Positions 14,665 through 64,000 of a stretch of 64,000 nucleotides of DNA are shown here, in pieces (the first letter of the stretch is position 1; each line of letters starts with the position of its first letter). Both the position numbers and the translations under genes were made by a program. The notes under the pieces were generated by a model, which saw nothing but the letters and a program-made list of their open reading frames with translations, had not been told where the DNA came from and searched no databases. Source of the stretch: Rhizaria sp. SCN 62-66 (Eukaryota); the NCBI GenBank assembly GCA_001724265.1, contig MEDY01000158.1, forward strand, positions 1 through 64,000. Reading direction: 5' to 3'.

Positions 14665-15099
14665 ATGTCCAAGGCTCGTCAGAACCGCCGCAACCGCGCC
14701 CCCGAGGGCTTCGAGATCCTCGCCCCCACGCTCGAGGGCTTCACGCGCAAGATGCGGGAGGCCGAGGCCGAGTCGCTCGAGACGCGGCGCCCCGACGAAG
14801 TGCTGTGGCCCATCCTGCACATCCACCACCAGCGCTCGCGGTACATCTACCAGCAGTACTACGAGAAGAAGGCCATCTCCAAGGAAGTGTACGAGTACTG
14901 CCTCACGCAAAAGCTCGCCGACGCGAACCTCATCGCCAAGTGGAAGAAGCCTGGTTTTGAGCACCTCTGCTGCCTCAAGTGCGCGCAAGCGACGTCGAAC
15001 TTCGGCACGGCGTGCGTGTGCCGCGTACCAAAGAAGGACCTCGCCGCGGACGCAAACTTTGAGTGCAAGTCCTGCGGCTGCCGCGGATGCTCCAACTAA
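14665..15099 (+). CDS. BUD31: BUD31/G10 spliceosomal protein
   Basis: LWPILHIHHQRSRYIY, ADANLIAKWKKPGFEHLCCLKC, CVCRVPK and CKSCGCRGCS are G10 family signatures; stop TAA. Confidence 0.96.
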   Translation: MSKARQNRRNRAPEGFEILAPTLEGFTRKMREAEAESLETRRPDEVLWPILHIHHQRSRYIYQQYYEKKAISKEVYEYCLTQKLADANLIAKWKKPGFEHLCCLKCAQATSNFGTACVCRVPKKDLAADANFECKSCGCRGCSN

Positions 15100-15611
15100 G
15101 GTGCAACGCGCGCAACAGCGGCGTCGATGCCTTCGGAGAGCCAATGCTCCTCCGCCACAGCGCTAACTGCCGCTTTCTTAGCGGTTTTTCCCTCTGCTAC
15201 ATAGTCTTCAAACATACCTCCGTTGCAGCAGTCCCAAAGACGACACAACAACATCTTTTCAGTGCGCTACTGAGGCATCTCAGCGCGCACTGAGTCATTG
15301 TTTGACACTTTCTGCAAGCACACTCGCTTACATGTGCTAGTTTTGCGTGTGTCCTAGATGCTGCATGGTGTGTGTTATTTTTAAATTAGATCCGTAATAC
15401 AAAACAGAATCTCTCTCAATCTCTCTCAATCAACACAAATTCTCTCACGCAAGCCATAAAATTGAAACAAGATATCCACATCAAACGTTCAAAAATAAAA
15501 ATGTTTTCACTATGTATCATTGCATGCTCGCCATTCACCTCTCATTCTCACTCGCCAGCTCGCAAAGCATTGGCCGGCGTCACTCCAGACGTTGTTGACT
15601 TCCGCTCACAG

Positions 15612-16062
15612 TCACTTGGCGTCCGCACTGTCCGCATTGTCTGCGCTCGCAGCCGGCGCACGCGACACGCCCACAATGTGCACACACAAGTTCTCACTCC
15701 CAGTGGCTGCATTTGCATCACTGCCACCAGCAGCAGGAGCAGTCTCAGCGCTCGTTCCAGTGCTCTCTGCGGATGCCTCGGCATTCTCGGCAGCGGTTGC
15801 CTCGTCGCTCTCCTCGCGCGCGCGACTGCGGGCCCGCGTCATGCGCCCCTCAAGCTTGGCCGCATTGGTGCGACCGCTGCCGCCCTGCTGCTTAGCAGCA
15901 GTGCGTGAGGACGCGGGCGCGAGCTCGATGTCGACGCGGAGCCCGTCAAAGAGGAAGTGGTACGCGTGAGCCCCGCGTTCCCGCTGGTGCCGCGACCGGA
16001 AGTCTTGCATAGCGCATAGCTCCAACAGAGTCCGCCGCAGAGCATCCAGTTCACCGTCACCG

Positions 16063-16130
<68 letters not shown>

Positions 16131-17520
16131 GGTGGTGGTGGTGGTGGTGGTGTTGGTGGTGGTGGGGGTGGTGGTGCTGCTGTTGTTCTTCGTTGCTGTC
16201 GAGCTGTTGCTGTTATTGTTGTTTGCATATGAGTAGAAGCGGCAGGGCCACACTGCTGCAGCCGCGGACGCAGCTGCAGAGGCCGCATTGGACTTCCCTA
16301 GCTTCACCGCACTCGCGGCTGCCGTGGCAGAGGCGGCAGCCGCGGCAGAGGCGGCAAGTGCACGGAGCTGCCTCTCGGCGACATCGGTCCACACAGGCGC
16401 CTCGTTCCACGCCGCACGCACTGCACTGCTCTCAGTGCGAGCGCTAGAGCCAGCATCAGCGCTCGAGTGCGCGATTGTGGTCACGGCGTGTGGCTGCGCA
16501 GCGCCGGAGCCCTCGATGACCCAGGCAGGGACGCGGCAGCGCGGGCGGGACTCGAAGTTGCCGAGGTAGGGCTTCACGTCGTAGATCGGGGTGCCGTCGA
16601 GCAGGTCGGCGCCGCCCACGGTCAGCACGGAGCCGTCGGGCGAGACTGAGAGCAGCTCCACCAGAGACAAACCGACTGTGCGAGTCGCAACAAAACAAGC
16701 GAGAAGAAGGTAATGGGAATGAATCAGACTTAATCACGCAAAATGGAGCAAAATAAAGTTGATTTGTAAAATAATAGTAGCTGTTATTTACTATATTCAT
16801 AGTTAGTGTTATTTTCGCGATGGTATGCTCCATAAACGTACTGGGGTTATGGCGGTGCGGGGTGCGGGTTGCGTAAATGCCAACGCGTGCGCCGCCAGCG
16901 CGCGGGGGCGCGACCTTAGTCTTGATAGCCGCCGACGCCGCGTTGGTGTTTTCGTGAAACTCCCAAATCAGCCACACGTGCGAATACGCTGCGAGCCCTT
17001 CAGTGGACTCCCGGGGCGCGATGCGTTTGTCTAGCACGACGCGCGAGCGCACCGAGGGCACCAGTCCGCCCTGGCGCGGAGTCCCGTTGCGCGCGGAGAA
17101 CGGAGCCTCCACGCGCCCAATCGGAACAAACAAACCGCCGCCCGTGCGCGGAAAGCGTACGTTGGCCGCCCCGCGCTCTGCGGCGGACAGCGCGGGCGCG
17201 GTGACGACCGCAGGGCTGCCCGGCGAGCCAGAGGCAGCGTTGGCGTCGCCGCCGTGTCGCACCGCGGACTGCGACTGCTGTAACTGGCGGAGACGCTTCT
17301 CCGCGGTAACGCGGCCTTGACGTTCAGCGGCTACCATTGAGCGCAGATGCTCGACCTCGCTGTCCGACACCGCGGCTGGCGCAGACTGGGCGTCGGGGAG
17401 ACGCTCAACGAGCTTCGGGGAGGACGCGGAGTTGCGGGCGATAATAACGCCGAGGATGAACGCGAAAGTCGATGTAATAAGCACATCAGTTGTATATCCA
17501 TATGAAGATACCTGGCCCAT
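15612..17520 (-). CDS. TRMO: TrmO/TsaA-like tRNA (adenine37-N6)-methyltransferase with N-terminal hydrophobic segment; exons 17520-16842 and 16675-15612
   Basis: PIGRVEAPFSARNGTPRQG, SHVWLIWEFHEN and GIYATRTPHRHNP in exon 1 join IGLSLVEL...GADLLDGTPIYDVKPY after removing a GTACGT...CACAG intron (16841-16676); stop TGA. Confidence 0.9.
16063..16175 (-). repeat. Coding trinucleotide repeats (ACC)n then (AAC)n encoding poly-Thr/poly-Asn in TRMO
   Basis: Long GTT and GGT runs on the + strand within the open frame. Confidence 0.9.
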
Positions 17521-18589
17521 TCCTCGTGATTCTATCGACGATCAAAATACGTTCCAGCAGACTTATCAGCATCGCACCCGACGTGTTTTGTGCAAGCCTT
17601 CGAGCCGTTGGACGACATTCAGGAACAAGCGTGAAAGTCGTGATATGTCGCGATATAAGCAAGGGCAGTACGATTTAGGGTTTGGGTAAATGAGTTATGT
17701 ATGGAATTTATGAATAATACAGGCGCACGTATCTAAGTATCGTTGTGCGGTCCTCTTCCGCCCCAATCCATTCAGCACAGTCTGTTTTGTCGCAACACCA
17801 TAGCACACACGCGCTCACGGGCTGTTACACACTGCAAGATGCTGTGAGTTTAGCGCCCCGTGCTGCTGTAAGCACTCTCCGTGCACACATTGCTCGTTTT
17901 GTTATCGTCTCGCTTGTCATGCGCCACGTCTCATCACCACCCAGCTGCAGCGCCGAGCCCCTTCCCGCATTGACTCACATGCACGCACACGCAGAAACAC
18001 ACGGATAACTCGCCACGCCCGGCGGCAGTGCCGGGGCATAGGAGTGGTGTAAACACGTCGAATGGTGGAGTATCAGGGCGAGAGCAAAGAACTCAGCAAG
18101 CAGAAGAACGAGACAAGAGCGGCGCCACTGATGAAGCGCGACTAAACACCACAAACAAAGCATATCACAGAGAGAGCGAACAAACAGCACAGCAGAGCGC
18201 ACGCCTCAACAGCCACCGCAGAGAGCAGCAACGCATGCACATGTGTACGTGTCAGTGTCGCGTTGCGAGCGCCACAGAGCAGGCGGCGAGATATCGTAAA
18301 ACAAAAGCAAAAGTATCGTGAGTGTGACCATCACCGAAGACGCGGACACGTGGGGGGGAAGAAGAGATACGAAAAAGAAGAGACATAAGAATAATAGTTG
18401 TTTGTTACTACTCGAAGCAGCATCACTACAGCAGAAACAGACAGTCTCACACACGCACAAGCATGCACAACGCACAAGTGGACATCACAGAGACCTTATT
18501 AGTTCATGTGACACTCATGTTCGCGCATGTATGTACGTCTGCATGTGTAGAATGACCGTGTCCTGCTTCGCATCGAAGCATTTAGGCAT

Positions 18590-20569
18590 TTAAGCGGACC
18601 AGAGCTCCTGGACGTAGCGGTTCTGGCGGATCATCTTGTCGACGTAGGTCTCACCGGCGGCCTGCGTCATCTTGCCGTGCTCGACACACAGGTCCACCAC
18701 GGTCTTAAGCACGTCGCGGCCCATGAGCGTGGCGCCGCAGACGTAGATGTACGCGCCGGCAGAGATGAGCTCCCAGGTGCGCGCGGCGTTCTTACGCAGC
18801 AAGTCCTGCACGTAAACCTTCTCGGCCGTGTCGCGCGAGAAGGCGAGGTGGAGCTCGGTGAGCACGCCGGACGCCTTGGCAGCCTCGAGCTCCTCGCGGT
18901 AGATGTAGTCGCGGTCGGCGTTGCGGCAGCCGAAGTAGAGCACGGTGTCGCCGAAGCGGTGCTCCTCCTTGCGCGTGGCAAACTCCTGGATGAAGCCGCG
19001 GAAGGGCGCGATGCCGGTGCCAGGGCCGATCATGATCACGGGAGTGCCGCCGCGGACCGGCAGGCGGAACGACGACTGGCGGACGAACACCACGAGCTGC
19101 TGCGCGGCGGCCTTGGCCACGGGGTCCTCGGCCGCCGAGTCGCAGAGCAGCGCGGATGCCACACCGGCGTGTTCGCGGCCGTGCGGCTTCTCCTTGACGA
19201 GGCGGGAAACAGTGAGCGCCATGCGCTTGGGCTGGACCTTAGCCGAGGACGCGATGGTGTAGTAGCGCGGCTGGAGACGCGGAACCATCTCGAGGAAGTG
19301 CGAGAACGGCATGTCAACGCCCGGGAAGGCCTCGAAGAACTCGAGCCAGTTGTAGCGCTCGTTGTGGAACTCCTCCTTGCCGTCGTGGTCGTTGGCGAAG
19401 TGCTCAAGACGGCGCTTCTCAGACTCGTCGTTGGTGTAGGTCGCGAAGATGGCGGGGAACTTGCCGCGCGGGCATGAGTTGATGTCGCAGAAGTACAGCA
19501 GAGCGTCCTCAACGGAGCACGGGGAAGGCACGTGAAGCTTGCGGTTGGTCTTGGCCTTGACTGCGAAGAGCGCGGACATCTCGACGCCGAGACGGCGCGC
19601 GAGCTTGCCCGCCATCTTAAAGTCGTTGCGCGGGTGGACGCCCGCGTTGTCGGCGGTGCGGTAAGTGAGCTTGGTGGGCGCGAGGTCGAGCTCGAGGTGG
19701 ACGGTGCTCTCGGCGCGGCCGGACACGGGGCGGACCTCGCGGGACTCGGCGACGGTGACGATGGCGGTGGCGTGTTCCTTGGCGGGGTCGTTGAAGAACT
19801 TCTGGACCTTGGGGAGACCACCCTTGTAGTCCTTGGCGGCGGCGGAGTCGGCGGGGAAGAAAGTAACGTCGAGCGTCGAGGTGAAGGCGGCGGCGGCACC
19901 GGCGGCCTGGGCGGAGGACGCCATGTACTTAAGGCGGGCAGCGGCCCAGAAGGCGCCACGCCAGTTGTCGAGGTCCTCCTCCAGAGTGCCGTCGTCGTCG
20001 CCGAGGCCGATGGGCAGGAGGCGTTCGCCGCCCATCGCGGCCATCTCGGCGTCGATGCGCTTGCCGATGGCGCAGAAGTGGCGGTACTGCCGGTTGCCCA
20101 GCGCGAAGACGGCGAAGGTGAGATGCGACATGTCGTTGGGGTCACGCTCGGCGTCGGTGATGTACTCCCAGAAGTTGGCCGCGTTGTCCGTCGGCTCGCC
20201 CTCGCCAAACGTGGCAACAACGAAGACGACCAGCGACTCGTTCGTCAGTGCGGAGGGCTCGAACTCCTCCATGTCAACGGCGCGGGCCGCGAAGCCCTGC
20301 TGGCGGCCCTCCTCGGCAAGGTCGTGCGCGTAATTCTCGGCAGTGCCCGACTGGGAGCCGAAGAGGAACGTGATCGACTGCTTCTTGTCGCCGGACGCAG
20401 CAGCGCCGGAGGCAGAGGAGGCGGAGTTGGAGTTGGACGAAGTGGTCATGCCCTTGGGCTTCTGAACGGCCGCGGGGGCGGATGAGGAGCCGGTGAGGAG
20501 CTTGAAGGCGACGATGAGAGCGACGCCCATGGCCGCAGCCAGGATAACGTCGAGGGCCGCAATAGCCAT
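18590..20569 (-). CDS. POR: NADPH-cytochrome P450 reductase, 659 aa
   Basis: N-terminal TM anchor; flavodoxin motifs FGSQSGTAE, ATFGEGEPTDNA, FALGNRQY; FAD/NADPH motifs LQPRYYTIASS, MIGPGTGIAPFRGF, LYFGCR, KVYVQD, YVCG; C-terminal ELWSA; stop TAA. Confidence 0.95.
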   Translation of the reverse strand: MAIAALDVILAAAMGVALIVAFKLLTGSSSAPAAVQKPKGMTTSSNSNSASSASGAAASGDKKQSITFLFGSQSGTAENYAHDLAEEGRQQGFAARAVDMEEFEPSALTNESLVVFVVATFGEGEPTDNAANFWEYITDAERDPNDMSHLTFAVFALGNRQYRHFCAIGKRIDAEMAAMGGERLLPIGLGDDDGTLEEDLDNWRGAFWAAARLKYMASSAQAAGAAAAFTSTLDVTFFPADSAAAKDYKGGLPKVQKFFNDPAKEHATAIVTVAESREVRPVSGRAESTVHLELDLAPTKLTYRTADNAGVHPRNDFKMAGKLARRLGVEMSALFAVKAKTNRKLHVPSPCSVEDALLYFCDINSCPRGKFPAIFATYTNDESEKRRLEHFANDHDGKEEFHNERYNWLEFFEAFPGVDMPFSHFLEMVPRLQPRYYTIASSAKVQPKRMALTVSRLVKEKPHGREHAGVASALLCDSAAEDPVAKAAAQQLVVFVRQSSFRLPVRGGTPVIMIGPGTGIAPFRGFIQEFATRKEEHRFGDTVLYFGCRNADRDYIYREELEAAKASGVLTELHLAFSRDTAEKVYVQDLLRKNAARTWELISAGAYIYVCGATLMGRDVLKTVVDLCVEHGKMTQAAGETYVDKMIRQNRYVQELWSA

Positions 20570-21005
20570 CGAGCTGCTGTGTGGACAGGCGGAAACAAAA
20601 ACGGGATGGTATTGAAGCGGGTGAGAGCCTTGAAGGGGTGCGAGCGGAGAAAGGCGGGAGTGGGACGAAGACTGGCGTGCTTGGTAGTGCTGACCGTTTG
20701 AGCTAGCGGTTCATTGCGGACGCTAAAAGGCATATTTCGATGTAACCATAAAATAAATATATATCACGTATGTACGTGTTATTCAATTTTCGAAGAAAAT
20801 GTGAACGACGGCTTATAGATGCCGCATTGCATCTATTCCCTCAAGCACCGAGAGTGCGAGTCGCTGACCATCGCCTTCACCGAACTGACCGTGAGTCGAG
20901 TCGCGGTGAACACAGTCACTTCTCCGAGACTGAGAGACTGCCCCGATCGATCGAGAGGTGCTGTGGGAAGGGCTTCTTCTGATCGTCGGGATAGTTTAAG
21001 ATTCC

Positions 21006-22161
21006 ATGACGACTGCACACCGTGCGACTTGGTACGTTATCTGTTTTTCATTTCCGCATAGATCCCGATCTTTCCTTCCATCCGACTCTCTGCGCTCACC
21101 TCTTGCCCTCCGTTCATGCTTCAACGGACACTCTGCGCCCTTGCCCCTTCCCAGGCACCCCGCCGTGGCCTCGCTGTCCAACGGCGGTATCAAGAACCTC
21201 CAATCCGTGATCATTTCCTCTAAGGACATTGCAGGTCATACCAAGCTCAAGTTTCGGTACGTACCTCCCCTCGCAAGCGTTGCCTGCACCTTCTTTGTTC
21301 ATCCCTGTGTCTCGGTACATCCACACACGCTCACTCACCCCCAATCTCTCTTCTGTGTCTTTATTCGCCCCTCACAGTCAAGCTGGCCAGGCTGGCGAGA
21401 GCGAAGTCGGCGCGCGCGACCTCAAGGCGGAGCTCCTGGCCCGCGAGCGGCTTCACTTCGAGAAGGTCGCTCAAGACAAAGCCCGCGCCGGCGGACTCCT
21501 AACCTACTCCGCTCCGGCCGGTTCAGCCGCCGCAGCGGTCCCGGTGTCCGCGGCGGGCGCGGCGGCGGCGGAGGCGGGCGACGCGGGCCCGCTGCGGCTG
21601 CAGGACGTCGACTTCAGCCAGTTTGACGACGCCGACGCCGACCTCGCCCTCTCCAGCGATGAAGACGATGATGATGCCGATGGGAGCAAAGACGGGCCTC
21701 GCACCAAGCGCAGCCGCGCGGCCGCCGCCAAGGGCAGCAACGACGGCGGCGACAGTGACGATGACAGCGACGACGACGACGACGACGACAGCGAGGACGA
21801 GGAGGCTGAGCTCATGCGTGAGCTTGCGCGGATCAAAGCCGAGCGCGCCGCTGAAAAGGCCGCCGCGGAGGCCGAGGCGCGCGCCCGGGCCGACGCCGCG
21901 CTCTTCGACGGCGACGGCGCGGGCGCGGACGCCATTCTTGCCGCGAACCCGATCCTCGCCGCGCAAATGGGGCTCTCTAACAGCACTGGCGCTGGCTCTA
22001 GTGCGAGTGGCAGTGGCAGTGGTGGGCTGAAGCGCCGGTGGGATGATGACGTGGTGTTCCGTAACCAGAGCAGGGATACCAAGGAGACGCAGAAACGCGT
22101 TGTTAACGACGTCGTGCGCTCCGACTTCCACCGCAGCTTCATCAAGAAGTACATTCGTTGA
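21006..22161 (+). CDS. CWC15: CWC15/Cwf15 splicing factor; exons 21006-21031, 21155-21256, 21378-22161
   Basis: Spliced product MTTAHRATWHPA...SSKDIAGHTKLKFRQAGQ...EAELMRELARIKAERA...KRRWDDDVVFRNQ...VNDVVRSDFHRSFIKKYIR. Two GTACGT...CAG introns restore the frame; stop TGA. Confidence 0.94.
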
Positions 22162-22475
22162 GAGGGGCTCGTACGTTTAACGCTAGCGCACTCGCCAGTG
22201 AGCGGACCGTGAGGCTCGGCCAAGGTCTGTCCTGCAGGTCCGGGAGGCCATGATAAAGGCCCACTGCAAAAATACATTAGTTTTTACAAGTTACTCTGCA
22301 TCGTTAATCTATAATACACTGCTATCAAGCTTGCGAACGCAATGTCTTGAAATCGCGCAGCTTGTCGGAAAGCAATGCGGTTGTGGCGAGTGTAGAGGAA
22401 CCAACAAGGACGAGATTTTGTGAAGTCAGATAACGGTGGGTCTTCCGTCAAACGCACTTTTGCGACTAGAACTGA

Positions 22476-24308
22476 ATGGAACCTAGTGTTACTGTATCAT
22501 CCTGTATTCCATGCGCTGACAGTGTGTGTGTGTCCTTCACGGGAGCGCTGGACGAAGCCTTCGATACGAGCGTCCCCGTGCAGGCCGCCGTCGAAGCCAC
22601 AACCTGCGGCCACGCCGTTGCAGAAACGTTGCGCTTTGGCGCCACGGTGGGTCGCAGCGTGGAAGCCTTTTACCTGTCCGCACCGACGGTGACCCCCGTC
22701 ACCGCGGGCTCCTGGGTCGGCTCCGTGCGCGCCGGCAGCGGCGTCAACTGTGATCAAATCTCGCTTTGCCCCCACGGCGCCGGCACGCACACAGAGTGCG
22801 TCGGACACATTACGGTACGTCAAAAATAACATCATAATCTATCTCAGCATCTATTCTACTAATTATGTCGTTGGTTTGTCTTAGACTGTCGTTTTACGCT
22901 CACTGTGTGTTGATATCTGTTTGTCATTCCATACGATCGCTTTCTCGTCTCTCTCAACACGCAGCCTGATGGCCCTACGCTGGCTGCGATGCTCCCGCGG
23001 TCGCTCCTAATCCCCGCGCTGGTGCTTACCGTACCCCCGCGTTCCTACACCGGCCCGCACCCTCCCGCCTCAGTCTCCGCTCAGCCCCTCGCCACTGCAA
23101 CTGCAAGCTCGACTCCGCCTACTCTTACTGGTGCATCTGAAAGCGCAGTGTTTCTGCTGCCGTACCCGAGCGCGCGAGCGGGCGACCTGGTCATCGACGC
23201 GCCCGCCGTGCGCGACGCGCTTGCCGCCGCCCTCGCACCCACAGTTTCCGCGCTGACTCCCGCCGCGCGCGCCGCGCTCCGCACCGCCGGCGGCGCCGCA
23301 CTCGCCGCCATCCAATCTCAGACCGAGACTCAGACCGAGGGCGAAACCTCTCGCAGCGCCGGTGTGGAGACAGCGGATCGCGTGCCCGCGGCGGTGGCTG
23401 CGCTGCTGGGGACACTGGCGCCCTAGGCTCTGGCGTTGGCCGCGGCGGCGCGCGCTATGGTGCTGCGCAGTCTCGCGCCTCAGGCGTATCTCTATCACCT
23501 CTATCACCACCGCAGCGCGAGTGTGAATCGCCGCTCCACTGTAAGCAACCACTCTGCCGCGAGCGGCAGCGAGATTCCTGAAAGCGCACAGTGCTCGCTC
23601 GCTGACGCGTTTGCACACGTGCACCACTCAGCGACTAATGATGCTCACGGCCACTCTGCCGCTGCTCACTGCCACCCCGCGTCGTCCCCGCAGTGCTCCG
23701 CCCCCGGCCGCGTCTGCTACTCGGGATCTAATCCGCCGTACATTACGGCCTGCGCGGCGTCACTCCTCGCCGCGCTCGGCGCGCGCGCCCTCGTCCTCGA
23801 CTTGCCCTCGCCGGACCGCGAAGATGACGCCGGCGCGGTCGCAGCGCACCATGCTTTTTTTCGGTCCCGCTGGTGGCGCGCCGCACGCACCGCCGCTGCA
23901 GACGCCGCCGCCGCCGCCGCTGGAGCGAGCGAGACCGAGACCGCGGCTGCGGGCGCAGATGCGCGCGCGCGGGTGCTTCGGAGCGCGTGTGATGCCGTTG
24001 AGTTGTCGCGATTGCGGGCCGAGCCCGCGACGGTGACTGAGCTGGCCTGGCTGCCTGCTCCGCCCTGCTCCGCCGCCGCTGTCACAGCCACCACCACTGC
24101 CACAGACAGCCAGTCTGCGCGGGTGACTGCGTGTGCTATGTGCGGGGCGCGGGGGCTGCGGGACGGGCCGGCGCTGCTCGCGCTGGGGGTGCCCGCGGTT
24201 GAGAGCGACGCTGCGCCCGCGCGCCCGCTGCTGGCGCCCGCTGTGCTCACGGTCACGCCCCCGGTCTCTGCCCCGCAGCCACAGCCACTGTCGCTGAGTG
24301 GACAGTGA
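22476..24308 (+). CDS. Cyclase family / kynurenine formamidase-like metal-dependent hydrolase; exons 22476-22814 and 22965-24308, with an in-frame TAG at 23424-23426
   Basis: PHGAGTHTECVGHI metal-binding motif in exon 1. GDLVID lies before the TAG; MVLRSL, YSGSNPPYI, LVLDLPSPDREDDAGAVAAHHAFF, TVTEL and ESDAAPARPLL lie after it in the same frame. GTACGT...GCAG intron 22815-22964; stop TGA. Confidence 0.8.
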
Positions 24309-24556
24309 ACAGTGGTCGAGAGATGCGTTTGACAATGCTTGAGTGAAGTGAATGTTGATTACAAAACAGGAATAGTGTATTGGAGCGGGATTAATATTAT
24401 TAGGTTATATTCGCTATGCTTGGGATTTATACCAAGCTATTGACGGTACAACATCAAGTACAGTACCATACTACTATATTAACTTAACGTTCGCAGTCTC
24501 AGTTTGTTCCGCTTGCGGTGGCGGTGCAGCCATTGTCGCAGTTGATTGCGATCAGG

Positions 24557-24598
24557 GCTCGCAACGGTCAGCTCGCAATGGTCAGCTCGCAACGGTCA
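24557..24598. repeat. 14-bp tandem repeat GCTCGCAA(C/T)GGTCA x3
   Basis: Three adjacent copies (24557-24570, 24571-24584, 24585-24598) with one mismatch, between two convergent genes. Confidence 0.85.
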
Positions 24599-24773
24599 GC
24601 CGCAGCGGGATTCAATATCTGTGAGCCAATACAACGTCGATTAGTTTAAGCGGGTCCGAGCACGTCTCTACGCTTATATTAGGGGAATAGATCTCTCGGT
24701 TGATGAATTACATAGCATAATACGAAACAGCGGCGCGATTCGCGTTTCTTGTAAGTTCACACACACGGCTTGC

Positions 24774-25751: not shown

Positions 25752-26238
25752 CTACAATGCGTACGTCGTAAAAAATGGTTGTGACAAACGAAAAAGAGGT
25801 GAGTGTGCAGCTCAACAGCGGGGTTTCGAGCATGCGCTCGTTGGAAGCAAGTGCCGTCCGCAGTGAACGTAGAATGCGATGTGCGCATTCAACACACGGT
25901 TTTCCATGACATAATAAATAGAGAACACGCACAAACATATTTTATACCACAGAAAAATGAAAATATGCTATTGACGTTAGATTACAAGCGAGATATGAAA
26001 CGAAACCCAACACCGCCACAAACGAATTTCGACACATTTTAAAAAGCACGCACGCAGTTCAATTTCGAAAAAGTCACGGGTCTTCTTCAAGTTCATCGTC
26101 AGATGCGACAGTTTAGGCCTTTTGCAATGTATGTGTATGTCACATGTTTGTTTTCCAAGTTCATTTTCTCACACGGCTGTTCCTGCATCTACGCCGCCGT
26201 TCTTTTCGCTCACCGTGCTCCCAGCCTGAGTCCCCCAG

Positions 26239-44789: not shown

Positions 44790-44852
<63 letters not shown>

Positions 44853-49964: not shown

Positions 49965-50361
49965 CAGACAGACAGACACACACACACACACAAACACTGA
50001 CACACAAACACATACTTACACACACCTACACACACAAACACAACACTGCACACACTTTTCACACTCACTACATTACGCATTACAGCACAGCACAGCACAG
50101 CGCAGCACAGCACAGACATATCTGTGCGGCCACATGACACACGCTAAGAGCCGGATCACACTTATGAACTGGGCGACCCTGCAAAAGTACAGCACAGCAC
50201 AGTCTCGCACAGCAGCAGTACAGTCCGGCGGTCTTCGGCATCACGCTGCTGTTTTACACCGCACAGCAACGCGCCCCGCAGCAAAGCGGGATGACAGCGC
50301 CGCACGGACACAGAACGGATAGCGTTCGCACATATCATGTCAGCCATACCACGTGATAGCA

Positions 50362-50399
<38 letters not shown>

Positions 50400-52988: not shown

Positions 52989-54205
52989 GGTGGTGCCTGT
53001 GGGGAAGAAAAAGAAAGGGCAGCGAGAGGGCAAGGCGTGGCAAGAAAAGAATAGCGGCGTGAGGACGAGAGAAGCGGAGCAAATGAGCCGGATGAAGGGG
53101 ACGCGAGAGCTAGGTCGAGGGGGGCTCCGGCCCCCCCCCTCTGAGACTAGGTCACGAACGCGGCAGATACCGCGCGCTGGTATCACTGCAGCGCAGCTGG
53201 GTCGGCATGCCCGATTATCTGGCATGCGCTGCAGTCGCGCTGAGCAACGCCCCAAGAAAACAACGAAGCCCCGGCCGCGCCAGAGGTCTGAAGTAGGACC
53301 CGCCCCAGAGGGCTCGTCACTGCTGTGTGAATCCTCTAGGGGCATACATTTTAGGGATATTCGATCTCTAGGAAGCCGCTGTGCCTAAAGAAGTAATAAA
53401 AATGCAAATAAAAGACACGAAACAGTTTACACAAAAATTGAATGCTCTCCAAACGGCCTCACCACGCCTAAATGTCATCTGCAAGCCTGCCCATTGAGTT
53501 TGGGCTTGCTTGACGGCCGGCCCTTAGACTGTTTTTTTCGGTCCACTCTGGTCAGGCTTCGGTCCTCGTCGTTCGGCGATTCAGTGGGGTGCTTTCTTTG
53601 GTGGGACTAAAATATTATTATCGGAGGTATGATCGCCTCAAAAACGCTTCATTTTGAAATATATTATTTGCGAGATGAGTGTATATGTTGTGCTCGCAAT
53701 TTTAAATTCGAGCAGAGTGAATCCATTACGAGTTGCGAGTCAACTCAATGCATCCGTTCTTTCAGAAAAGTAACCAAGCTGAGCTAGAAAATATATCACT
53801 CCAACGTTGTATAATAGGGAGAAATAGATGTCATGAGATGAACATTGAGCCATGAGAGGTATGTATTGGTGTGAGCATCCAATAAATTACGAAGTTGCCT
53901 ACTTCCAGAAAGCAACACCTAAAGCACCTGCCACCGCGAAACGCGCAGGCTTGTGCTTCAGGAAGAAAGATGACCACTTCCCCAGCGACAACACACGAGT
54001 ATGCGCGCATAGAGAGATGTCACCTCGGGGAGGATATTGAGCAGAAGACGTGGTTGCTACACCACGTCGTCGACGTCATCACCGCGCTAGTTTAACTTTA
54101 ACACTCTTTTGTCAGCTCCCAACACACTACGGTGGATGAGACCGGCATGCCAGGAGTGTTATGAAGACAGAGAGTGATGATAGTTAGTTAGGGGAGGCAA
54201 ATAAC

Positions 54206-55129
54206 TTACTGCTTGTTGTCCTTGAAGGTGGCGATGTACCACTTCTGGACGGCATCGAAGCCCGCGAGCACACCGGCACCGGCAACACCACGGAGGATGT
54301 TGGCACCAGCACCCTTCATGAAGGCGGAAGCACCGTCCTTCTTGAGGATCTGAATACCGCAGTCAATGGAGTTCTTGTACTTGGCACCAGAGCCGACGGT
54401 CATCATCATGCGACGGCGGATGGTGTCGAGGGGGTACGACAGGAGGCCGGAGACGACGGTGACACCGTAAGCGAGGCAGAAGGAGAGGAAGACGGAGGCA
54501 TCCTTGCCGAGGAGGAGGGGGCGGAGGGTGTCGTAGAGGCCGAAGTAGAAGCCACGGTAGACGATGATACCAACGCACGAGATGACGAAGCCACGGTAGA
54601 GGCCGGCAATACCGTCGGTGGCGAGGGTCTTCTTGTAGACGTCAACGAGGCCGTTGTACTGGCGCTCGCCGCCCTTGGACTTAACGTCGGAGGCAAGACG
54701 GGTACGGGCGAAGTCGAGGGAGTAGACGAAAGCCAGGGAGAGGGCACCAGCAGCACCGCCGGAGGCGATGTTCTTGGCGAGCTTGGACGCAGTGGACTCG
54801 TTCTTCTTGGTGGCGAACATCTCCTTGATGGTGTCCTTGAAGGCGAAGTTCAGGGCCTGGGTGGGGAAGTAACGGACGACGTTAGCAGTGTTGCCGCGCC
54901 AGAAGGAGGAGAGACCCTCAGTCTTCATGGTGTGGGTGGTGCAAGCCCAGACACCGCCGTAGGACTTCTCGAGACGGCCAGACTTGATCATCTCAGCCTC
55001 GTTCTGGACGAGGAGCTTCACGCGCTCGATGGGAGCAGCGACGGTCTTGGCAGCGATGGCCGCAGCACCGGAGAGAAGGAAGTTCTCAAGGAAGCTGAGC
55101 TTGGAGGAAGAAGCAAGAGACTCACTCAT
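54206..55129 (-). CDS. AAC: Mitochondrial ADP/ATP carrier
   Basis: [52 protein letters not shown] signature. Start at ATG 55129; stop TAA. Confidence 0.97.
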
Positions 55130-55862
55130 GGCGACTGGACAGAGCAACGTAGCAAGCAAAGAAACAAAGAAATGGTGAGGAGGACAAGCTAGGGTGAGCG
55201 GAGTTTTTGGGCGCGGACGAGATCTCCGGGGGCATCAAACGCGGTGGATAAAACGAAAAAACAAGTGCGCAATGGGGTTTCGCGGAGAAACACCCGTGGG
55301 CTGCGCTACATGAAAGACAGACACGCTTTGACAGCGTGTGAACACGGTTTTCGCCGCGAAACTTAAATTGATGACAGGCCGAAGTAGGGGACGCGGTCGG
55401 GCCGCCACGGAGACGTCGCGAATAGGCAACATTGCGAACCAAGCAAGAAAAATGAATCACGAAACAAATACGTGGCAACGCGGGCCACCGTAATTGCGCA
55501 TCTGCAATCTCTAAGACTGCGCGGGGCGTTCGCTTTGTTCGCTGCGAAAGAAGCGACGAGTCCGTCCTCTGTCTCGCCTCCCCGCTCTGCCGGGGCTAAG
55601 GGCTCGACCCCTTAGACGGTCGCTCACCAGATGACCGTGAGCAGCGTCTGCTGACTGCAACTTGTGGCTTAGATTTGGGGTTATTCAACTGATATCAAAG
55701 TACTATCTATGAAGATACTTCTCATGAATATAGGAACAATGCAGTTTGGTCTGTATTTTTGTTAACTTAAATCTGAAAGGGAGCATATCACCAAACGCAG
55801 AGACACTGGGACCGGGCTCGGCCAACTTGACGCGCCCTCTGTAACGCGCTTTTCCGGCCAAC

Positions 55863-56510
55863 TTAGACGTAATAATACCCGTATGCAGGCTGGACGCTGC
55901 GGTATGTCACCGGCACGTAGCGGTACCCACTGCGGTAGTTGTAGTTGCGAGGCTGTGTGTTCGTGTTGTAGTAGATGTTACCGCGAGTGCGATAACGCAC
56001 CGGACCAGGGCCTGGAGCTGGGCCAGGAGCGGGCGGGCGCGGACGCGGGTTGGGACGCCAGTGGGGCGGGAAAAACGGCCACGGACCGGGCCCGGGCGCG
56101 GGCGCGGGGGGACGTGGCCGCGGCGGCTGCGGCTGCGGGGGAGCGCGCTGGGTGCAGAGGCGCTGCAGCTGGAAAGGGTTCATCGAGCGGCATGTTAGAT
56201 ACGGCTCGAAACCGCGCTGGCAGCAGTACCGCGGGTCGATCGGCTGCGAGAGGTCCACGGGGGCCGGCGCCGGGGCCGGGGCAGGCTCGGGAGCGGGCTC
56301 AGGGGCCGGAGTAGGAGTGTCGGTTTCCGTCTCGTCGGGAGTTGCGGTCTCATCAGTGGTGTCTGACGACAAGGGGGCGGGAACCTCCTCGCCGAGGCCC
56401 TCGTTGCGGTGCTTGAGCGAGGGGTCCGCTGAGTCGAGCGCGGTGGCGGAGAGCACAGCGACCGCGAGGGTCGCGAGCAAGAGCAGGAGCGTCAGGCGTG
56501 AGCGGGCCAT
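55863..56510 (-). CDS. Secreted Pro-rich protein with a small Cys cluster and Tyr/Arg-rich tail
   Basis: Signal-peptide-like MARSRLTLLLLLATLAVAVLSATA, acidic/Thr linker, PAPE/PAPA repeats, YCCQRG...C...C; stop TAA. Confidence 0.75.
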   Translation of the reverse strand: MARSRLTLLLLLATLAVAVLSATALDSADPSLKHRNEGLGEEVPAPLSSDTTDETATPDETETDTPTPAPEPAPEPAPAPAPAPVDLSQPIDPRYCCQRGFEPYLTCRSMNPFQLQRLCTQRAPPQPQPPRPRPPAPAPGPGPWPFFPPHWRPNPRPRPPAPGPAPGPGPVRYRTRGNIYYNTNTQPRNYNYRSGYRYVPVTYRSVQPAYGYYYV

Positions 56511-57058
56511 GCTGTGCGAGAGAGTGGGATAGGACGCGAACAGAAGATCGAGCGCGATGATACTAAGAGCTGCAACATAAATAATAATGAATATAGATAC
56601 AATAACTATTTATGTATCCGAACGTGCGAAGTTCGAACTTGAATTTATCAGTATTTCACTTAAAGGCAATCATTGCAAATCACTTACGATGTCGATGTCA
56701 CCGTGGTTCGCAAAAAAATCGTGAAGCAGCCAAAAACAAGGACTCGCCGTTCAAATCTTCGAGGGAGTAACTCTCTCTGCCGCAATCCAGCACTTATACT
56801 GAAATAGAATGTGATTGTCGCGCTTGATTTACGACCGTTTTTGTGTTTAAATACTGTGTTGAACGATCATATCCCGCAGAATTGACAAATTCTTTATCGT
56901 CGAAGCACCGAATTACAAGCGCTTCAACCTCATTAAGCAGCGCTAGCGCCATGAAACTACGCTTATAAGTACCATGTGCAATGTTTTTTTTATTTCACGT
57001 TGTTTTCTATAGACTTGACACAAAAGCAGACACTTAAATCTCTTTCCTCGCGTGCAGC

Positions 57059-58730
57059 ATGGACTTTCGGGGGGACGTCGAAATTGGCGCCTCTCAGGGC
57101 GGTGGATACCACGCACGAACCGGGACACAAACCCGGTCCGGAGTGCCTGCCACGCCCAACAGTGCTTTGCAACCCACCCTCGGACCCTCACGGCCGCCGT
57201 CCTGGCACCCCAGCCAAGTGTCTATGCGTTCCCACGGCCCTGCCCCCACATCCTCGTCATCGTCCTCAGCTTCGTCGTCATCATCATCATCATCGTCGTC
57301 GTCAGCTGCAGCAGCAGCGCAGGGCGCAACTGGCCCTGGTCCGGCGCGCTTGCCCGTTGCCACGCTGACGCCCGAAGGCACGGCCTCGCTCTACAAGCTC
57401 GTCAACACGCTCGCTGCATCGCTCACACCGCAACTCGCAGCCGCGCTCATGGTCGAGCCTCCTTCGTCTATCGCGGCCGCCACACCCGCTACCGCTGCTG
57501 CAGAGGGCTCCGCGGGTGAGGACGTGCTGCTGGACGCGTTTCTGCTGCAGCACTCTCGCGCATACGCCTTCCCTTCCCCTGTAGACTCTGCCGCCGCCAC
57601 CGACGCCACAAACGACGGAGGCAACGGCGGCAACAGCAGCAGCAGCAGTGGTAGTAATGTGAACAATGTGAGCGCTGCAGACGGACCCGGTGCTCCATAC
57701 CCGCAACTCGCCGCCGCGCTACTGTGCGCGCGTGTTCTTAGCCCCTCTTTCTGTCCACCGCCACCCTCCGCAGCTACAGCAACAACAACAACATCAGTCT
57801 CAGTCTCAGTCTCCAGCACAACTAGCTCGAGTTCTGGCTCTAGTTCAAGCACTGGCGCTGGCTCTGGCGCTGGCGCTAGTGGAGTGGTGGTCTTACAGTC
57901 TACGCTGTGGGCTGCCCCGGCGCGCGCGCACCGGCTCCGCGTTCTGCGCTGTCTCCGTGTGCTATCCCGTGATGGACGCCTCGCTGAACGCTTGCTCTAC
58001 CCGCGTCCCTTACCTGCGCCCCTCACAAACGCCTCAGCCGCTGCTAGCAATGCTGCGGCGGCGGCGGCGGTGTCGGGTCTTGACTACCCCGCGGCGGTCG
58101 CGGGGCCCGGCGACGTGCCGCCACCGCTGCGCGCGCTGTCTCGAGCGCTGTCGGTCCACGCGCAGGCGCACTTCGCGGCGGCGGCGGCGGCGGCGGGCAA
58201 GCCTGGCGCCCCCGCGCTGCGTGGCGTGACTTGGGAGCGCTCTCCGCCGCTTTACTTAGAGGAAACACTCGGCGAGCTCACGTCTCTTGTCAAGCGCGTT
58301 GCGCTGCTTCCGCTCCTTGTCCCCAGCAACAACAACACCAGTTCGAATGCGAGTTCAAGTGCTGGGGTGAATAGTGACAACGGCAGTGCGATGTTGATGG
58401 CAAACGAGCTGCTTTTGCGTGCAGACGCGCATGCACCGTTGCTGCTATTGCTTTGCTCTGCGTCGCCCTTTGTTGTGCAAGCCGCGCTTGTTGCGCTGTT
58501 GCACTTGCGTGGTGCCGCGGCAAACGCGGCCGCGCAGGGCACGTCCGCCGCCGCCGCCGCCGCCGCCGCGGGCTTCGCTGTTACCACCACTGCCACGACT
58601 ACCGACGGCGAGGTGGAGGCTGAGCTGGCCGCCGCGGAGGCCAGCGTTGCAGCGGCGGCGGGCGCGGCGGCGGCGGCTGTGGCGGACGCGATCGCGGCGT
58701 TTTCGTTCCCTCACGCGCGCGTTTGCGCCC

Positions 58731-58772
<42 letters not shown>

Positions 58773-61461
58773 GCAATAGCAGTGCAAATAGTGAAGAATT
58801 GTACTGTTGCTGTGCGCGCGACGGCCCCGGCGGTGCGCCGTGCCCACCCCCGCCAGTCTTCAGCAACAACACGAGCATCGGGCGCAATAACGCTGATAAT
58901 GACAACAATGACGCTGCCGCCGCTGCCGCTCGCGAGTGGGCATGCTGGGACCACGCTTATATGAGCGACCGTGACCGTGACCGTGCGCAAAGTAACCGTG
59001 AGCGCCTCACAACTGACCGTGAGCTCGGTGACGACGCCGCGAGTGATTCCGACAACGACTGGGGTTCTGGCGGGGGCAACGCCCTCACGGCCGCGCTCGC
59101 GATCGTTGCCGGCACTGCGCCGTGCTTCCGCGTTCACAGCAGTTACAACAACAGCGGGAGCACTGAGCGCGCTACTTCCGCCAACTCTAGCAGCGCAAGC
59201 GCAAGCTCTCTCGTCGCGCTGCGCCGCCTCGCAGCCGATCTGCTCGCGTTTCTCCTGCACAACTCTGCCTTGGCGCGCGCGCGCTTTGCCGCCGCGGCGG
59301 GCGCGCCGCGTCTCGTCGCCGCCGTCGCCGCGCTGACCCCGGCGCGCGCGCTTCTGCGGGGCCGGCCCGCCGCAGCCCTGGCCGCCGACGCGGAAGACCT
59401 GCTCTGCTCGCTGCTGCGGCTGCTGGGGGACGCCGCCGCACACTGGGGGTCTGCGGAGGCCGCACTCGCCGCCGGCGCGGCGCCGCTGCTGTTGCACGCG
59501 CTGCACTCCACTGTTGCCCCGCAGCAACAGCACGCGCTCGCGGCCGACTCGTCATCATCGTCATCCTCTGCGACTACGACTGCGAGTACAAGTGGGTCTG
59601 TGACCGCGGCGGCGCCCGTGGTCCCGGCCGGCTGGGCCGCGGCAGCACTAGGCGCGGGCTTCCTCCCGCTCCGCGCCGACTCCGCCCCCGCGGCGCTGCG
59701 CGCGCTGTCCGCGCTGTCCTTCGCGCCCCTGGGGTAGCCCGTTCGCCCCAGTCCGTTGTTAGACGTGTTGGGCCCCAGTGTGCGCCCGCTGTGTCTGCCG
59801 CCGCCGCGGTCGGAGCTGTGGTGTTGGCGCCGCGCCGCCGCCGCCGCCACGGCCCTTGCGCAGTTGCTGCTGCATGACGCACGCCCTGCGCCGCGCCGCA
59901 TCCGCTACCGCGCGCCTGGCACGTCGTCGGCGACAGCAACAACAACAGCAGCTCAGCCTCTCGGAACCACTGCGACCGCGAGTGTGAATGAGACTGATAC
60001 CGTGGGTGAGACTGCGATGGCGCTCCAGCCGCGGTCTAGCGCCGTGGCGGACGCCGTCCTCGCGGCTGGCGGCGCCGGCACTGCCGCGCTGCTCTTCGCC
60101 CAAGCGCACCCGCACGCGCAGCCGCAGGCGCCGGAGGCTCCCGGCCGCGCTGCCGCGGCGGCGAGCGACGCGCAGACGGCGCTGCTGCGGGTGCTGGCGC
60201 TGCTGCTGAGCCCGCCGCCCCCGCTCGCGCCGCCGCCGCCCGCGGCGCTGCCCGCGCTGCCGCACGGCTGCTGCGGCCCCGCGCTGTGCGCCACCGCGCT
60301 CGCCGCGCGCGACTGCGAATGCGACTGCACGCAAGAGAGTTCGCGCGGTGACGGCGGCAGCGCCAGCGGCGGCGAGAGCGGTGCCGCGACGGTGGATGTG
60401 GTGTTGCCGGCGGCGCTGCTGCTGGCGGGTCCCAGCGCGCTGCCCGCCGCGCTGAGCTCCGTCGCCGCGCGGCTCGGCGCGTGGCTCCGTCCGCTCGCCG
60501 CAGCGCACGCAGCAGCACCGGCCCCCGCGCTCGCGCTCGCTCTCGCTCCATCAGTCACCGTCTCGGCCGACTGGACGGGGGTCGAGTCCGGGGAGTGCGA
60601 CGGCTGCGCGCCACACGCGGCCGCGGTCGCGAGGCCGTGTCTCGTCGACTTGCTCTCGCCGTTGCTGCCGCCGTCAGTCCTCACCTCGCTTCTGGCCGCG
60701 GTCGCGCCCGCCAGCGCAAGCGCTGGCTCCGCGAACAACAGCAGCAGCAGCGGCGGCAATGGTAATGGTAATGGTAATGGTAATGGTAATGGTAATGGTA
60801 ATGGTAATGGTAATGGTAATGGTAATGGTCTTGTCACCGTGTCGGCCGCGTTGGCGACCGCGGGCGCGGCGGCGGCTGACCCGTCCGTGCTGCGACCCGC
60901 TCTCAGGCTCTGGGCCGACCATCTCTCAGGCCTCTCAGCTGCCGCAGCCGCCGCTGGCGACCGACCGTTCTCACCGTCCCAGTCTGGCACCGCTGCCCAG
61001 CAAGGCGGGGGCGGTGGGTTTTTTGCTCCAACGCAGACGCAAGGGCTTGGCCCCGCGACACCGTCCTCTGCTGCGGGCGGCGTCCGGCCCCGGTCTTTCA
61101 GCCGCACCTCCACCGCGACCGGCACGGGAACTGGCGGCCAGTGGGTCACAGGTACTGGAACCAGTGGTAGCGGGTTACCCGCGGCCCCACTGTCCCCCGG
61201 CGCTGCCGCGGCGTTCGCGGCCGCAGCGCACGCCGCGCACCTCGACGCCGCGGCCGCCGCCGCCTGCGCCGCCGCCGCTGCAACGGTCTCCCCGCAGTCG
61301 ACCACCGCCATGTCGCAGCGCGGCTCGCCGTTGACCGGGGCCGGAGACAGCGGCAACGACTTGGACTTTGACGCGGCCGCGGAGGCCGTGCGTGGTCTGC
61401 GCGCGCTGGCGGCTGCGGGCGGCGCGGGCGCGGCGGCGGCGGCGCTGGCCACGGCCGGCGC

Positions 61462-61492
<31 letters not shown>

Positions 61493-64000
61493 CCGCGCGG
61501 CGGCGGCGGCGCTCTCGCGCTGGGCTGGGCGCTCACTGTTGCGCGCGTGGTCCGCGGGCTCGGCGCTGCGCTGCGGTGCGAGCCGGAGACTGTGGAGAGC
61601 CGTGACGGGCGGGCGCGGGCGCGGGCTCTGGCGGGCGCACTGCAGGGTGTGTTAGCCGGTGACGCTACGCTGCCTTGTCACGAAACTGCGGCAAACGCAC
61701 TCGTACGGAGCGATAATGTCGACGGACTCAGTCAAGACAGCGATGATGACGAGAATGTTGGTGCCAGCGATGCAAGGCTGAGCAGACACTGCTTGCGCAG
61801 CCCTCTGGACCGGCTCCTGGGCCCGCGCGGCCGGCTCCAGCTCTCCAGCGCCGCCTCCGCCTCTTCCTCTGCCGTTACAGCGTCGTCTCTCACTGCGACC
61901 GCTGGTGTTGCTGCGGACGAAGACTGCGAGCTTTTCGCGCTTGCAGTCGCCGCGGCGGCGTGGGCGTCCGGCGCCGCGCTGCCCGCCTTTGCACCCGCCT
62001 ACCTCCCCGCGCTGCTCGCCACGGCCGCCAATACAAGCGCTGATTCTGACAGCGGCGCCGGCCCGCGCGCGTCCCCGTCGCCGCCGCCCGGGCACCCGCA
62101 GGCGTCGCCGCTTGTGTCACCAATCCCGCTCACCGCGCCCGCGCTCGTGCTCGCGCCCAGCGCGCTTGCCCCCGTCCCCACGGGCGCCAGCACCGGCACC
62201 AGCACCACTGTCGGCTTCAACACCGCCGCCGCCGCTGCCACTGCTGGCGCTGTATCCGTCATCTGTGAGCCGCCCGCAGTGGTGCTCACGCCCGCAGCGC
62301 CGCCGCACGCGCTGCCGCGGCTCGTCCGCGGCTTCCTTCTCGCTGAAGTGCTGGGCCGCGGCGCGTTCGGCGTCGTCTTCCGCGCGCTGCCCACGCCCGC
62401 AGCCTACGCGCCCGTGCTCGGCGACGCTGTGACACCGCCGCCAGCGACCGCGCCGCTGTTCGCGGACTGGCCGCGCGCGCTCGCGGACCGCCTGCGCCGC
62501 GCCGCACCGCCCGCCTCGGCGGCGGCCTTCGCAGCGGCGGGCGTCGCGGCGGCCAGCGCGGCGGCCGAGGCGGCCGGACTGGCTGGAGAGCCCGCCGAGG
62601 GGCCCGTGGCGATCTCGCGCTGCCTGCCGTCGCACGTCGCGGTCAAAGAGCTACCGCTGAGCGCGCTGGCGGGCGCGGACGGTCCTCCCTTGGAGCCCGA
62701 TGAGCTCGCCGCTGCCGACGCCGCGCTGCAGCAGGAGGCCGCCGTCGCCGTCGCCGCGCGCGCCGAGGCCGTGTGCCGCGAAGTCGCGATCGCCGCGCAG
62801 GTGACGCACCCGTACATCGTGCGCTACCACACGTCGTTCGTGTCGGCCGCGCGCCTGCACTTGGTGTCAGAACTCGTCGCCGGCCCCACCGTCTCCGACC
62901 TGGCCGCCGCGCTGCACGCTCGTGCGCTGCGACTGCCGGAGACGCTGTTGTGGTCGCTCTTCGCGCAGCTGTGCCTTGCTGTCACGCACTTGCACGCGGA
63001 CTTGCGCGTTGTGCACCGTGATATCTCGCCCGCGAACGTGCTTGTTGCCGTCCGCGCGCCGCCGCAGAGCCCTGCGCCGCGCGCACACGCCGACGCCGTT
63101 TTCGCTGGCTTCCCCGCGCCCGCGCCGATGCATACGCACACGCGCGCTGCTGGAAGTTGGGGCGATGTGTCTTCTGCGGCGGCCGCGACGGCGGCTGCGT
63201 GGGCGGAGGCGGATTACGTCACGGGGCTCTTCACAGCTGAACCGGGCGCGTACACGCACCACTGCCCCGACGGGCTCTGGCAGCGCCTCCTGCGTCGTCG
63301 CGCGCGTCCGCGCTGCGCCGCCTGTCTCGGCACGCTCTCACGGTCGCGCTTCGGCGCCTCAGCACGGCCCGCGCTTGCAGCGAGCTTCCCCGCCCCGCAC
63401 TGGCAAGACGCACTGCCGCTCTCCGTCGCCGACGCCGTCATCAGCGCCTTGTTGTCTTCGCAGAGCGGCTTCGGTCTCACTGGCGCGTTCGGCGGGACCG
63501 GGGCGTTCTCTGTGCTGGCCACAGGCACCGGTGGCGGCGGCAACGGCGGCGCGCTGCTGGGGCCGCAAGCGCTGTCCCGACAGCCGTCTGGCCCGCAAAC
63601 GCCCGCGCACGGCCGCACGGCCGCACTCGACGCCGCCGGTCCACCCGCCGCGGTCGCGGTCTGGCGCGGCGGCGCGCTGTGCACTGCGGTATCGTGCGCG
63701 TGTGCCTGTGCAGCGCGCGAGAGCGACGACGCCGCCGCGTGTGCGAGTGCGGTCGGCGCGGCGGACTCGGCGCCGTTCCCGCTGCTGCTGACAGTCAAAG
63801 TAACCGATTTCGGCCTCGCACGGCAGACCGCGCCCGGCCACACGCTGCTGCAATCCTCGGTCGGCACGGTGTCGTATTCCTGCCCCGAGATTATCTTGCG
63901 CCAGCCTTACACGGCCAAGGCTGACGTGTGGTCGCTGGGCTGTGTGCTGTACCACCTCGCTGCGCGCCGGCCGCCGTTCGCCGGGTCGAACCCGCTGCTG
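57059..64000 (+). CDS. NEK10: NEK10-like kinase (N-terminal armadillo region plus kinase domain) with an in-frame TAG at 59735-59737; runs off the right edge
   Basis: ARM-like blocks LRVLRCLRVLSRD, AHAPLLLLLCSASPFVVQAALVALLHL and LRRLAADLLAFL lie before the TAG. The same frame stays open to the edge with LGRGAFGVV (62351), VAVKE (62636), HPYIVRYHTSF, VVHRDISPANVL (63014), VTDFGLARQ (63806) and SSVGTVSYSCPE...KADVWSLGCVLY. Confidence 0.82.
60758..60829 (+). repeat. Coding hexanucleotide repeat (AATGGT)n encoding Asn-Gly in the NEK10-like gene
   Basis: About 12 perfect units; the length preserves the reading frame. Confidence 0.9.

Follow-up and report, generated by a model that had tools for sequence, protein, structure and literature searches.

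Gene ends and in-frame TAG codons of the window

We analyzed the use of TAG in the genes of a 64,000-nt stretch of contig MEDY01000158.1 (GenBank assembly GCA_001724265.1, Rhizaria sp. SCN 62-66, positions 1 to 64,000 of the forward strand), hereafter called the window. This stretch is eukaryotic, gene-dense and intron-poor, with a GC content of 51–74% along its length, and 20 genes were modelled in it, from a dynein heavy chain gene that runs off the left end to a NEK-like kinase gene that runs off the right end. Complete 3′ ends were found for 18 of the 20 models, terminated by TAA (11) or TGA (7) and never by TAG, a tally identical to that given in an earlier note on this DNA. The only in-frame stop codons within the 20 models are two TAGs, located in a cyclase-like gene (23424) and in the NEK-like gene (59735); as the earlier note had also stated, each gene carries exactly one. 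None of the models has an in-frame TAA or TGA, which are used as sense codons, one or both, in the ambiguous stop/sense codes of Condylostoma, karyorelicts and Blastocrithidia. The sequence around both TAGs is GC-rich and coding-like, unlike the 18 AT-rich intergenic spacers and the located introns. UAG read as sense is the one explanation that accounts for both the missing TAG ends and the two in-frame TAGs in coding-like sequence. One window leaves it unproven, and we favor it tentatively, at somewhat less than an even chance, in the form of a nascent or leaky reassignment.

By the gene models, the complete ends span 14620..56609, with TAA at 15097, 18590, 24774, 30734, 37516, 38182, 39646, 48629, 51918, 54206 and 55863, and TGA at 15612, 22159, 24306, 27674, 28167, 33033 and 46497; 12 of these 18 genes are supported by a Pfam match that exceeds the curated cut-off. 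Three open reading frames (ORFs) that seemingly end in TAG were rejected as TAG-ended genes. ORF 31168–32091 runs into an intron at AAG/GTACGC (the slash marks the splice site), whose start holds the TAG at 32089 (32075..32279, + strand, with a 3′ end that is not fixed and 32279 as one candidate). ORF 33341–34042, encoding a zf-HIT domain, likewise runs into an intron at AG/GTAGGT, and ORF 21504–22277 on the minus strand is antisense to Cwc15. With two of the three being starts of introns and the third antisense, the zero-TAG tally stands. The zf-HIT intron (34039..34151, + strand, 113 nt, GTAGGT...CCACAG), whose start holds the apparent TAG end, joins 33365–34038 to 34152–37518 in frame; the zf-HIT ORF and the 1138-codon ORF behind it thus form one gene (33365–37518), which a reading by ORFs only would split into two, the first ending in TAG.

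TAGs were also seen just 5′ of the Rab and EF-hand genes, where they precede the start codons. At 25752–25754, 29690–29692 and 34093–34095 the nearest upstream in-frame stop is a TAG, 0–2 codons before the ATG, and at 29690 and 25754 the ATG follows the TAG immediately, which may be chance or a feature of the start context.

The in-frame TAG of the cyclase-like gene

The first TAG (23424..23426, + strand), as read from sequence and translation, lies in exon 2 of the cyclase-like gene, where it is codon 154. Exon 1 (22476..22814, + strand, from the ATG to ...CAC ATT ACG) contains a stretch matching PF04199 profile positions 17–49. It is followed by a 150-nt intron of GC 0.39 (22815..22964, + strand, GTACGT...CACGCAG), with both exons in the same genomic frame, and by exon 2 (22965..24308, + strand), which ends in TGA and was assigned by translation, PF04199 and Protein Data Bank (PDB) matches. 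With TAG read as X, the frame 22914–24308 is open, with one TAG and neither TAA nor TGA.

Read through the TAG, the whole gene scored 20.4 bits against PF04199 (E 6.6e-4), and its segment upstream of the TAG scored 14.9 bits, so that both halves add to the family score; within the PF04199-like domain, the TAG sits between the two segments that match. A PDB search with exon 2 gave only two matches, the kynurenine formamidases 4cz1 and 4co9 (both at E about 1), aligned over 45 residues downstream of the TAG, at positions 124–167 and including ...AAHH...; with the whole gene read through, the same two were the top two of three matches. Pfam and PDB similarity therefore appear to point to one family on either side of the TAG, a signal that is weak but real. 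Pfam and NCBIfam searches with single pieces of the gene gave no matches, and a protein search with the cyclase exon matched only the window's own 283-aa ORF.

Codon usage runs on across the TAG in the same way. A codon model derived from the weakly biased genes of the window favored the same frame before the TAG (+29.1, for 22965–23423) and after it (+9.8 and +22.9), no GC dip was found at the TAG, and the frame stays open for 293 codons past it at ~70% GC.

The in-frame TAG of the NEK-like gene

The second TAG (59735..59737, + strand), again from sequence and translation, is codon 893 counted from an ATG at 57059. By translation, Pfam and PDB, this ATG opens a frame of 2314 codons on the plus strand that reaches the window end (57059..64000) and comprises an orphan low-complexity N-terminal part, the TAG, and a NEK-like kinase from ~62591. 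Taken from 57038 to beyond 64000 with TAG read as X, the frame has 2320 codons, with one TAG and no TAA or TGA. The Pkinase domain (120.8 bits, Pfam), which lies downstream of the TAG only, is split by long inserts and cut by the window end; among solved structures it is closest to NEK7 (E about 2e-28), NEK1 and NEK2, and the best relative in a metagenome-contig scan with the kinase part had 43% identity. The claim that family motifs lie on both sides of each TAG thus held weakly for the cyclase-like gene, and for the kinase gene on the downstream side only.

The earlier note had called the gene NEK10-like. ARM repeats, which mark a NEK10-type architecture, were looked for ahead of the kinase and on both sides of the TAG, and neither a Pfam repeat family nor a homologue of residues 650–1250 or 234–1432 was found; an exhaustive HMMER search with residues 234–1432 returned 25 weak matches, at E 2.6e-5 or worse, all on a Gly-Asn repeat. 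A single-sequence fold prediction across the TAG had a mean pLDDT of 44.7 and was uninterpretable. The frame holds a long Asn run encoded by AAC repeats (58701–58820) and a Gly-Asn dipeptide repeat (60741–60840). Inserts of low complexity are a common feature of the proteins of this organism, and the kinase and cyclase-like domains are split by them as well.

The stretch behind the TAG was compared with the window's spacers. The 279 nt between the TAG and the next ATG (60017) have a GC of 0.70 with a 100-nt minimum of 0.61, while all 18 intergenic spacers (314–1520 nt) have a GC of 0.37–0.54 with minima of 0.25–0.38. No spacer therefore lies behind this TAG, the 279-nt stretch being unlike 18/18 spacers, and the frame stays open for 1421 codons beyond it at ~70% GC.

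Reproduction of both TAGs in other assemblies

That the TAGs are base-call or assembly errors of a metagenome contig would accord with the short-read metagenome source and with the low-complexity, GC-rich regions in which they lie. A contig assembled from a DNA run of another study covers 59581–60696 with 0 differences, and around TAG 23424 the 145-aa ORF that ends exactly at the TAG was found letter for letter on 7 contigs, and the ORF that starts just after it was identical on 5 contigs (JGI, Logan and ENA in both cases). Sequence error, which the earlier note had named as a possible refutation, is thus largely refuted and we consider it very improbable. Because the samples seem to hold one clone, this reproduction excludes assembly error and leaves room for a young mutation.

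Splicing and editing as ways to remove the TAGs

We then considered whether the TAGs might be removed from the mRNA by atypical or alternative splicing or by RNA editing. Five spliceosomal introns were located, and 5/5 begin with GTA[C/G]G; the three that were measured are 113, 150 and 228 nt long with a GC of 0.36–0.39, and the TrmO intron is 166 nt by reading of the sequence. The crude intron finder was noisy, and two introns were used from its output. For TAG 23424 an in-frame splice option does exist (22815..23426, 612 nt), in which the TAG itself serves as the acceptor (CCCTAG/), and one other intron of the window ends in GATAG/. Upstream of TAG 59735 no strict GTA[C/G]G 5′ site was found within 700 nt, so that this TAG is not removable by an intron of this genome's type; a relaxed 5′ site, GTGGGT, lies at 59592, with an in-frame partner at 59762 by our own count. 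Against such introns, the stretches that would be removed have a GC of at least 0.63 and score as coding in frame, as seen from the codon score upstream of TAG 23424 given above and from frame 0 being best around 59588–59678.

A-to-I editing would convert the UAG to UGG, a change that some fungi make. Stop-correcting editing is not known outside filamentous fungi, and the host of this window groups with Rhizaria. Removal of the TAGs from the mRNA, by either route, is in our judgement quite unlikely.

Rarity of TAG and the standard-code alternative

A series of observations weighs against UAG as sense, and these bear largely on the alternative that the code is standard, TAG a seldom-used stop, and the two TAGs ordinary stops or nonsense alleles, which we regard as rather unlikely. 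The first concerns the gene ends. Taken alone, 0/18 TAG ends is not significant in so small a sample: its probability is 0.40, 0.15, 0.054 or 0.018 if the TAG share of stops is 5, 10, 15 or 20%, so that with TAG as a rare stop at a 5–10% share it is expected 15–40% of the time.

The second concerns usage. TAG makes up 2 of 14,721 in-frame codons and occurs in 2/20 genes, a count that excludes the zf-HIT exon 1 piece (223 codons), which had been entered one base out of frame and whose 1 TAG and 3 TGAs are artefacts; the quoted codon-usage figures still include this mis-framed piece. The dynein gene has no TAG in 4551 codons, as the earlier note had claimed, and in its relatives of 90% and 66% identity the dynein ORFs run without interruption over 4056 and 4719 residues. 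At equilibrium, by analogy with TTG and CTG (90:502), TAG should occur dozens of times. In favor of a sense UAG, the 2 TAGs among the 4183 codons of the four weakly biased gene pieces represent a frequency comparable to that of the rarest sense codons there (AGA 1, AGG 5 and AAA 6). That both in-frame stops are TAG discriminates little, because about half of the single-base nonsense paths in these GC3-rich genes give TAG (47–49% of all single-base paths to a stop, and 55–65% of transition paths).

The decoding machinery adds no support: the CUA-anticodon tRNA that the earlier note had proposed to look for was searched for in the 64-kb window only, where ARAGORN found 0 tRNA genes of any kind, no Rfam family was matched, and no eRF1 gene lies in the window. 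For the cyclase-like gene, the read-through score stays below the PF04199 gathering cut-off (20.4 vs 23.1 bits), and the N-terminal His-rich motif, read by eye, departs from what we take to be the family consensus. Under the standard code TAG 23424 would be a nonsense allele or mark a young pseudogene.

For the NEK-like gene, no credible homologue was found for the 892 codons upstream of TAG 59735 or for the region around it (protein search with residues 650–1250; HMMER with 234–1432). The 93 codons between the TAG and ATG 60017 are nearly without codon signal (+2.7) and without GC periodicity (0.69, 0.70 and 0.71 at positions 1, 2 and 3), in part because they encode a Thr/Ser/Ala-rich run, like others in the undisputed ORF; as estimated from base composition, a stretch of this length at ~70% GC is open in the right frame by chance in ~5–6% of cases. 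Of the RNA mapped on 44001–64000, where low-complexity matches dominated the output, none of the listed polyA pieces (60238–60696 and 62150–62728) crosses 59735. There may be a separate TAG-terminated gene upstream of the kinase: under the standard code, TAG 59735 would end an orphan gene (57059–59737), and the NEK-like gene would begin no earlier than ATG 60017, sharing that frame by chance.

Alternatively, both TAGs would be recent nonsense mutations in a clonal lineage, since the contigs from different years and studies are identical and one clone may carry young mutations. What stands against the standard code is that two separate accidents are needed among 20 genes that show no TAA, TGA or frameshift defect elsewhere, that the 279-nt GC-rich stretch would be a spacer unlike any other in the window, that both frames run on far past their TAGs, and that the cyclase-like halves both match one family. 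The two accidents are not independent of base composition, with TAG at about half of the single-base nonsense paths. The remainder of the probability lies with something else.

Host organism and other genes of the window

The dynein heavy chain gene at the left end (3–13655, minus strand) is intron-less and, going by how its relatives are named, belongs to the axonemal outer-arm type, so that the organism probably has flagella. Its motor region has 90% identity to one metagenome protein, which indicates that a sister species exists in a JGI metagenome, and 66% to another. The closest named proteins come from a Cercozoa transcriptome (56%), Plasmodiophora (55%) and chlorarachniophytes (51%), whereas the named stramenopile and apicomplexan dynein entries among the matches listed all have ≤49% identity. 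In a quick IQ-TREE analysis (25 rows), the window dynein fell inside a clade with Cercozoa, Plasmodiophora and chlorarachniophytes (SH-aLRT 99). From the similarity and quick tree of this one protein, we take the host as a rhizarian, and probably a cercozoan. A trypanosomatid host was rejected, as the G-beta gene and spliceosomal introns are present. The mitochondrial carrier and the rhizarian affinity of the dynein speak against a fornicate or other metamonad, and the outer-arm axonemal type of the dynein, together with its grouping among Rhizaria, against a fungus.

The remaining models encode BUD31, TrmO, a diflavin reductase, Cwc15, the cyclase-like protein, a Bax-inhibitor, twinfilin, the zf-HIT protein with its long low-complexity tail, a small EF-hand protein, a 1876-codon protein, an NF-YB-like histone-fold protein, a Rab GTPase, G-beta, a mitochondrial carrier and four proteins without family. 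Around 48900–51900, ~3 kb of GC 0.51–0.54 have no family match and hold ORFs without codon bias, and at 50001–52000 an AT skew of 0.33 marks a strong A excess on the plus strand. Wastewater-run contigs cover 48015–49480 and 50869–52590.

Ten public runs from six studies hold at least part of 57000–64000, and all are bioreactor, wastewater, activated-sludge or fuel-cell metagenomes; the contig therefore derives from an uncultured organism. Contigs of 2025 activated-sludge runs differ from the window at 24/558 (54518–55075), 8/336 (50929–51264) and 13/367 (56160–56526) positions, and further contigs from these runs match it exactly; given these mismatches, a second strain, allele or close relative co-occurs in that study. 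When the dynein was aligned against prokaryote genome contigs, 17 contigs from bacterial metagenome-assembled genomes (MAGs) were found to encode eukaryotic dynein heavy chains at ≤53% identity, three of them in one pond 'Verrucomicrobiaceae' MAG, which is eukaryote contamination of prokaryote bins; no DNA of the same organism was found among these 17, and likewise none among viral contigs.

Comparison with known UAG reassignments

The nearest precedent is the rhizarian exLh (Sainouroidea, Cercozoa), in which UAG encodes Leu while UAA and UGA stay stops (Panek et al. 2017, PMC5304391), and which is the one published non-ciliate case of UAG as Leu. For exLh the article gives 384 in-frame UAGs in 71 genes, about five per gene and mostly at conserved Leu columns, and gene ends of UAA (56) and UGA (15). 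The window organism resembles exLh in belonging to the same supergroup and, by dynein similarity, probably to the same phylum. It also resembles exLh in having only UAA and UGA at gene ends (11 and 7 here), in having only UAG as an in-frame stop, and in the absence of UAG from strongly biased genes, given that UAG is reported there to be rarest in highly expressed genes. It differs in its axonemal-type dynein and in its occurrence in wastewater reactors as opposed to an insect. Its 2 UAGs in 20 genes, both in unconserved stretches, as opposed to 384 in 71, add to the points that weigh against sense UAG.

According to the same source, Guttulinopsis vulgaris, also of the Sainouroidea, keeps the standard code, hardly ever ends genes with UAG and has no true in-frame UAG (PMC5304391). 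The window is similar in that UAA dominates the stops and gene ends are nearly free of UAG, a state that would be expected shortly ahead of a reassignment or in its absence; it differs in its two in-frame TAGs, which are reproduced across assemblies. Because a rhizarian reads UAG as Leu and a relative of it hardly ends genes with UAG (PMC5304391), the lineage fits a sense UAG.

The earlier note had named as known UAG-only cases the uncultured rhizarian (Leu) and Iotanema (Gln). Both are indeed described, and the phyllopharyngean ciliates were omitted, for which McGowan et al. 2024 (PMC11687900) report that UAG alone was reassigned three times independently, to Leu or Gln, with a tRNA-Sup(CUA), and that it occurs in 78–91% of genes and at 6.5–32% of synonymous codons. 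As in these ciliates, the meaning of UAG would here differ from that of UAA, with UAA as the preferred stop. Unlike in them, and to the detriment of the sense reading, usage here is roughly 20- to 100-fold lower on the figures of that source, and in-frame UAG is not widespread (2/20 genes). In Iotanema spirale (Fornicata) UAG is reported as Gln at ~8% of Gln codons (PMC5304391), again UAG-only and with fairly low usage. That organism is a metamonad, whereas the window organism has a mitochondrial carrier and rhizarian affinities, and UAG would here be ~0.3% of the Gln set (2/581). No other report of UAG reassignment in Cercozoa was found in the literature searched on the nuclear code, Sainouroidea and Cercozoa stop-codon reassignment.

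A possible early stage of UAG reassignment

Because TAG is far rarer here than in the documented UAG reassignments, only a nascent or inefficient reassignment fits. The proposal of the earlier note that UAG is decoded as an amino acid thus survives in that restricted version, which covers the missing TAG ends and both in-frame TAGs. In such a change, the organism, probably a cercozoan, would no longer end genes with UAG and would translate the rare in-frame UAG as an amino acid while keeping UAA and UGA as stops, the stop-to-sense change being at an early or inefficient stage. The amino acid would be inserted by a CUA-anticodon tRNA, or by a near-cognate tRNA favored by weakened eRF1 recognition of UAG, and UAG would so far be confined to low-complexity stretches under weak constraint, in genes with little codon bias. 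Both Gln and Leu would agree with precedent; as the earlier note had held, the window does not reveal which amino acid it is, both TAGs lying in stretches without detectable homologues.

A further step, possible and more doubtful than sense UAG itself, is that the window comes from a free-living cercozoan in which the stop-to-sense change of UAG has only just set in, with UAG gone from gene ends and barely reappearing within weakly constrained, low-complexity parts of weakly expressed genes, a natural codon-capture intermediate and a second UAG change in Rhizaria, independent or shared.

If the TAGs are ordinary stops, the TAG-free ends of ~20 genes are no evidence of a code change, and GC3-rich genomes favor TAG nonsense changes. 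If UAG is sense, this would be a new UAG-only reassignment, unusual only in its very low usage. UAG-only reassignments that keep UAA as a stop are rare and uncouple UAG from UAA, to which it is usually tied. With UAG as sense, the steps that involve the tRNA, eRF1 and read-through would be approachable in a protist recurrent in wastewater reactors, and, since the described cases are finished states with common UAG, this organism would show how the change begins.

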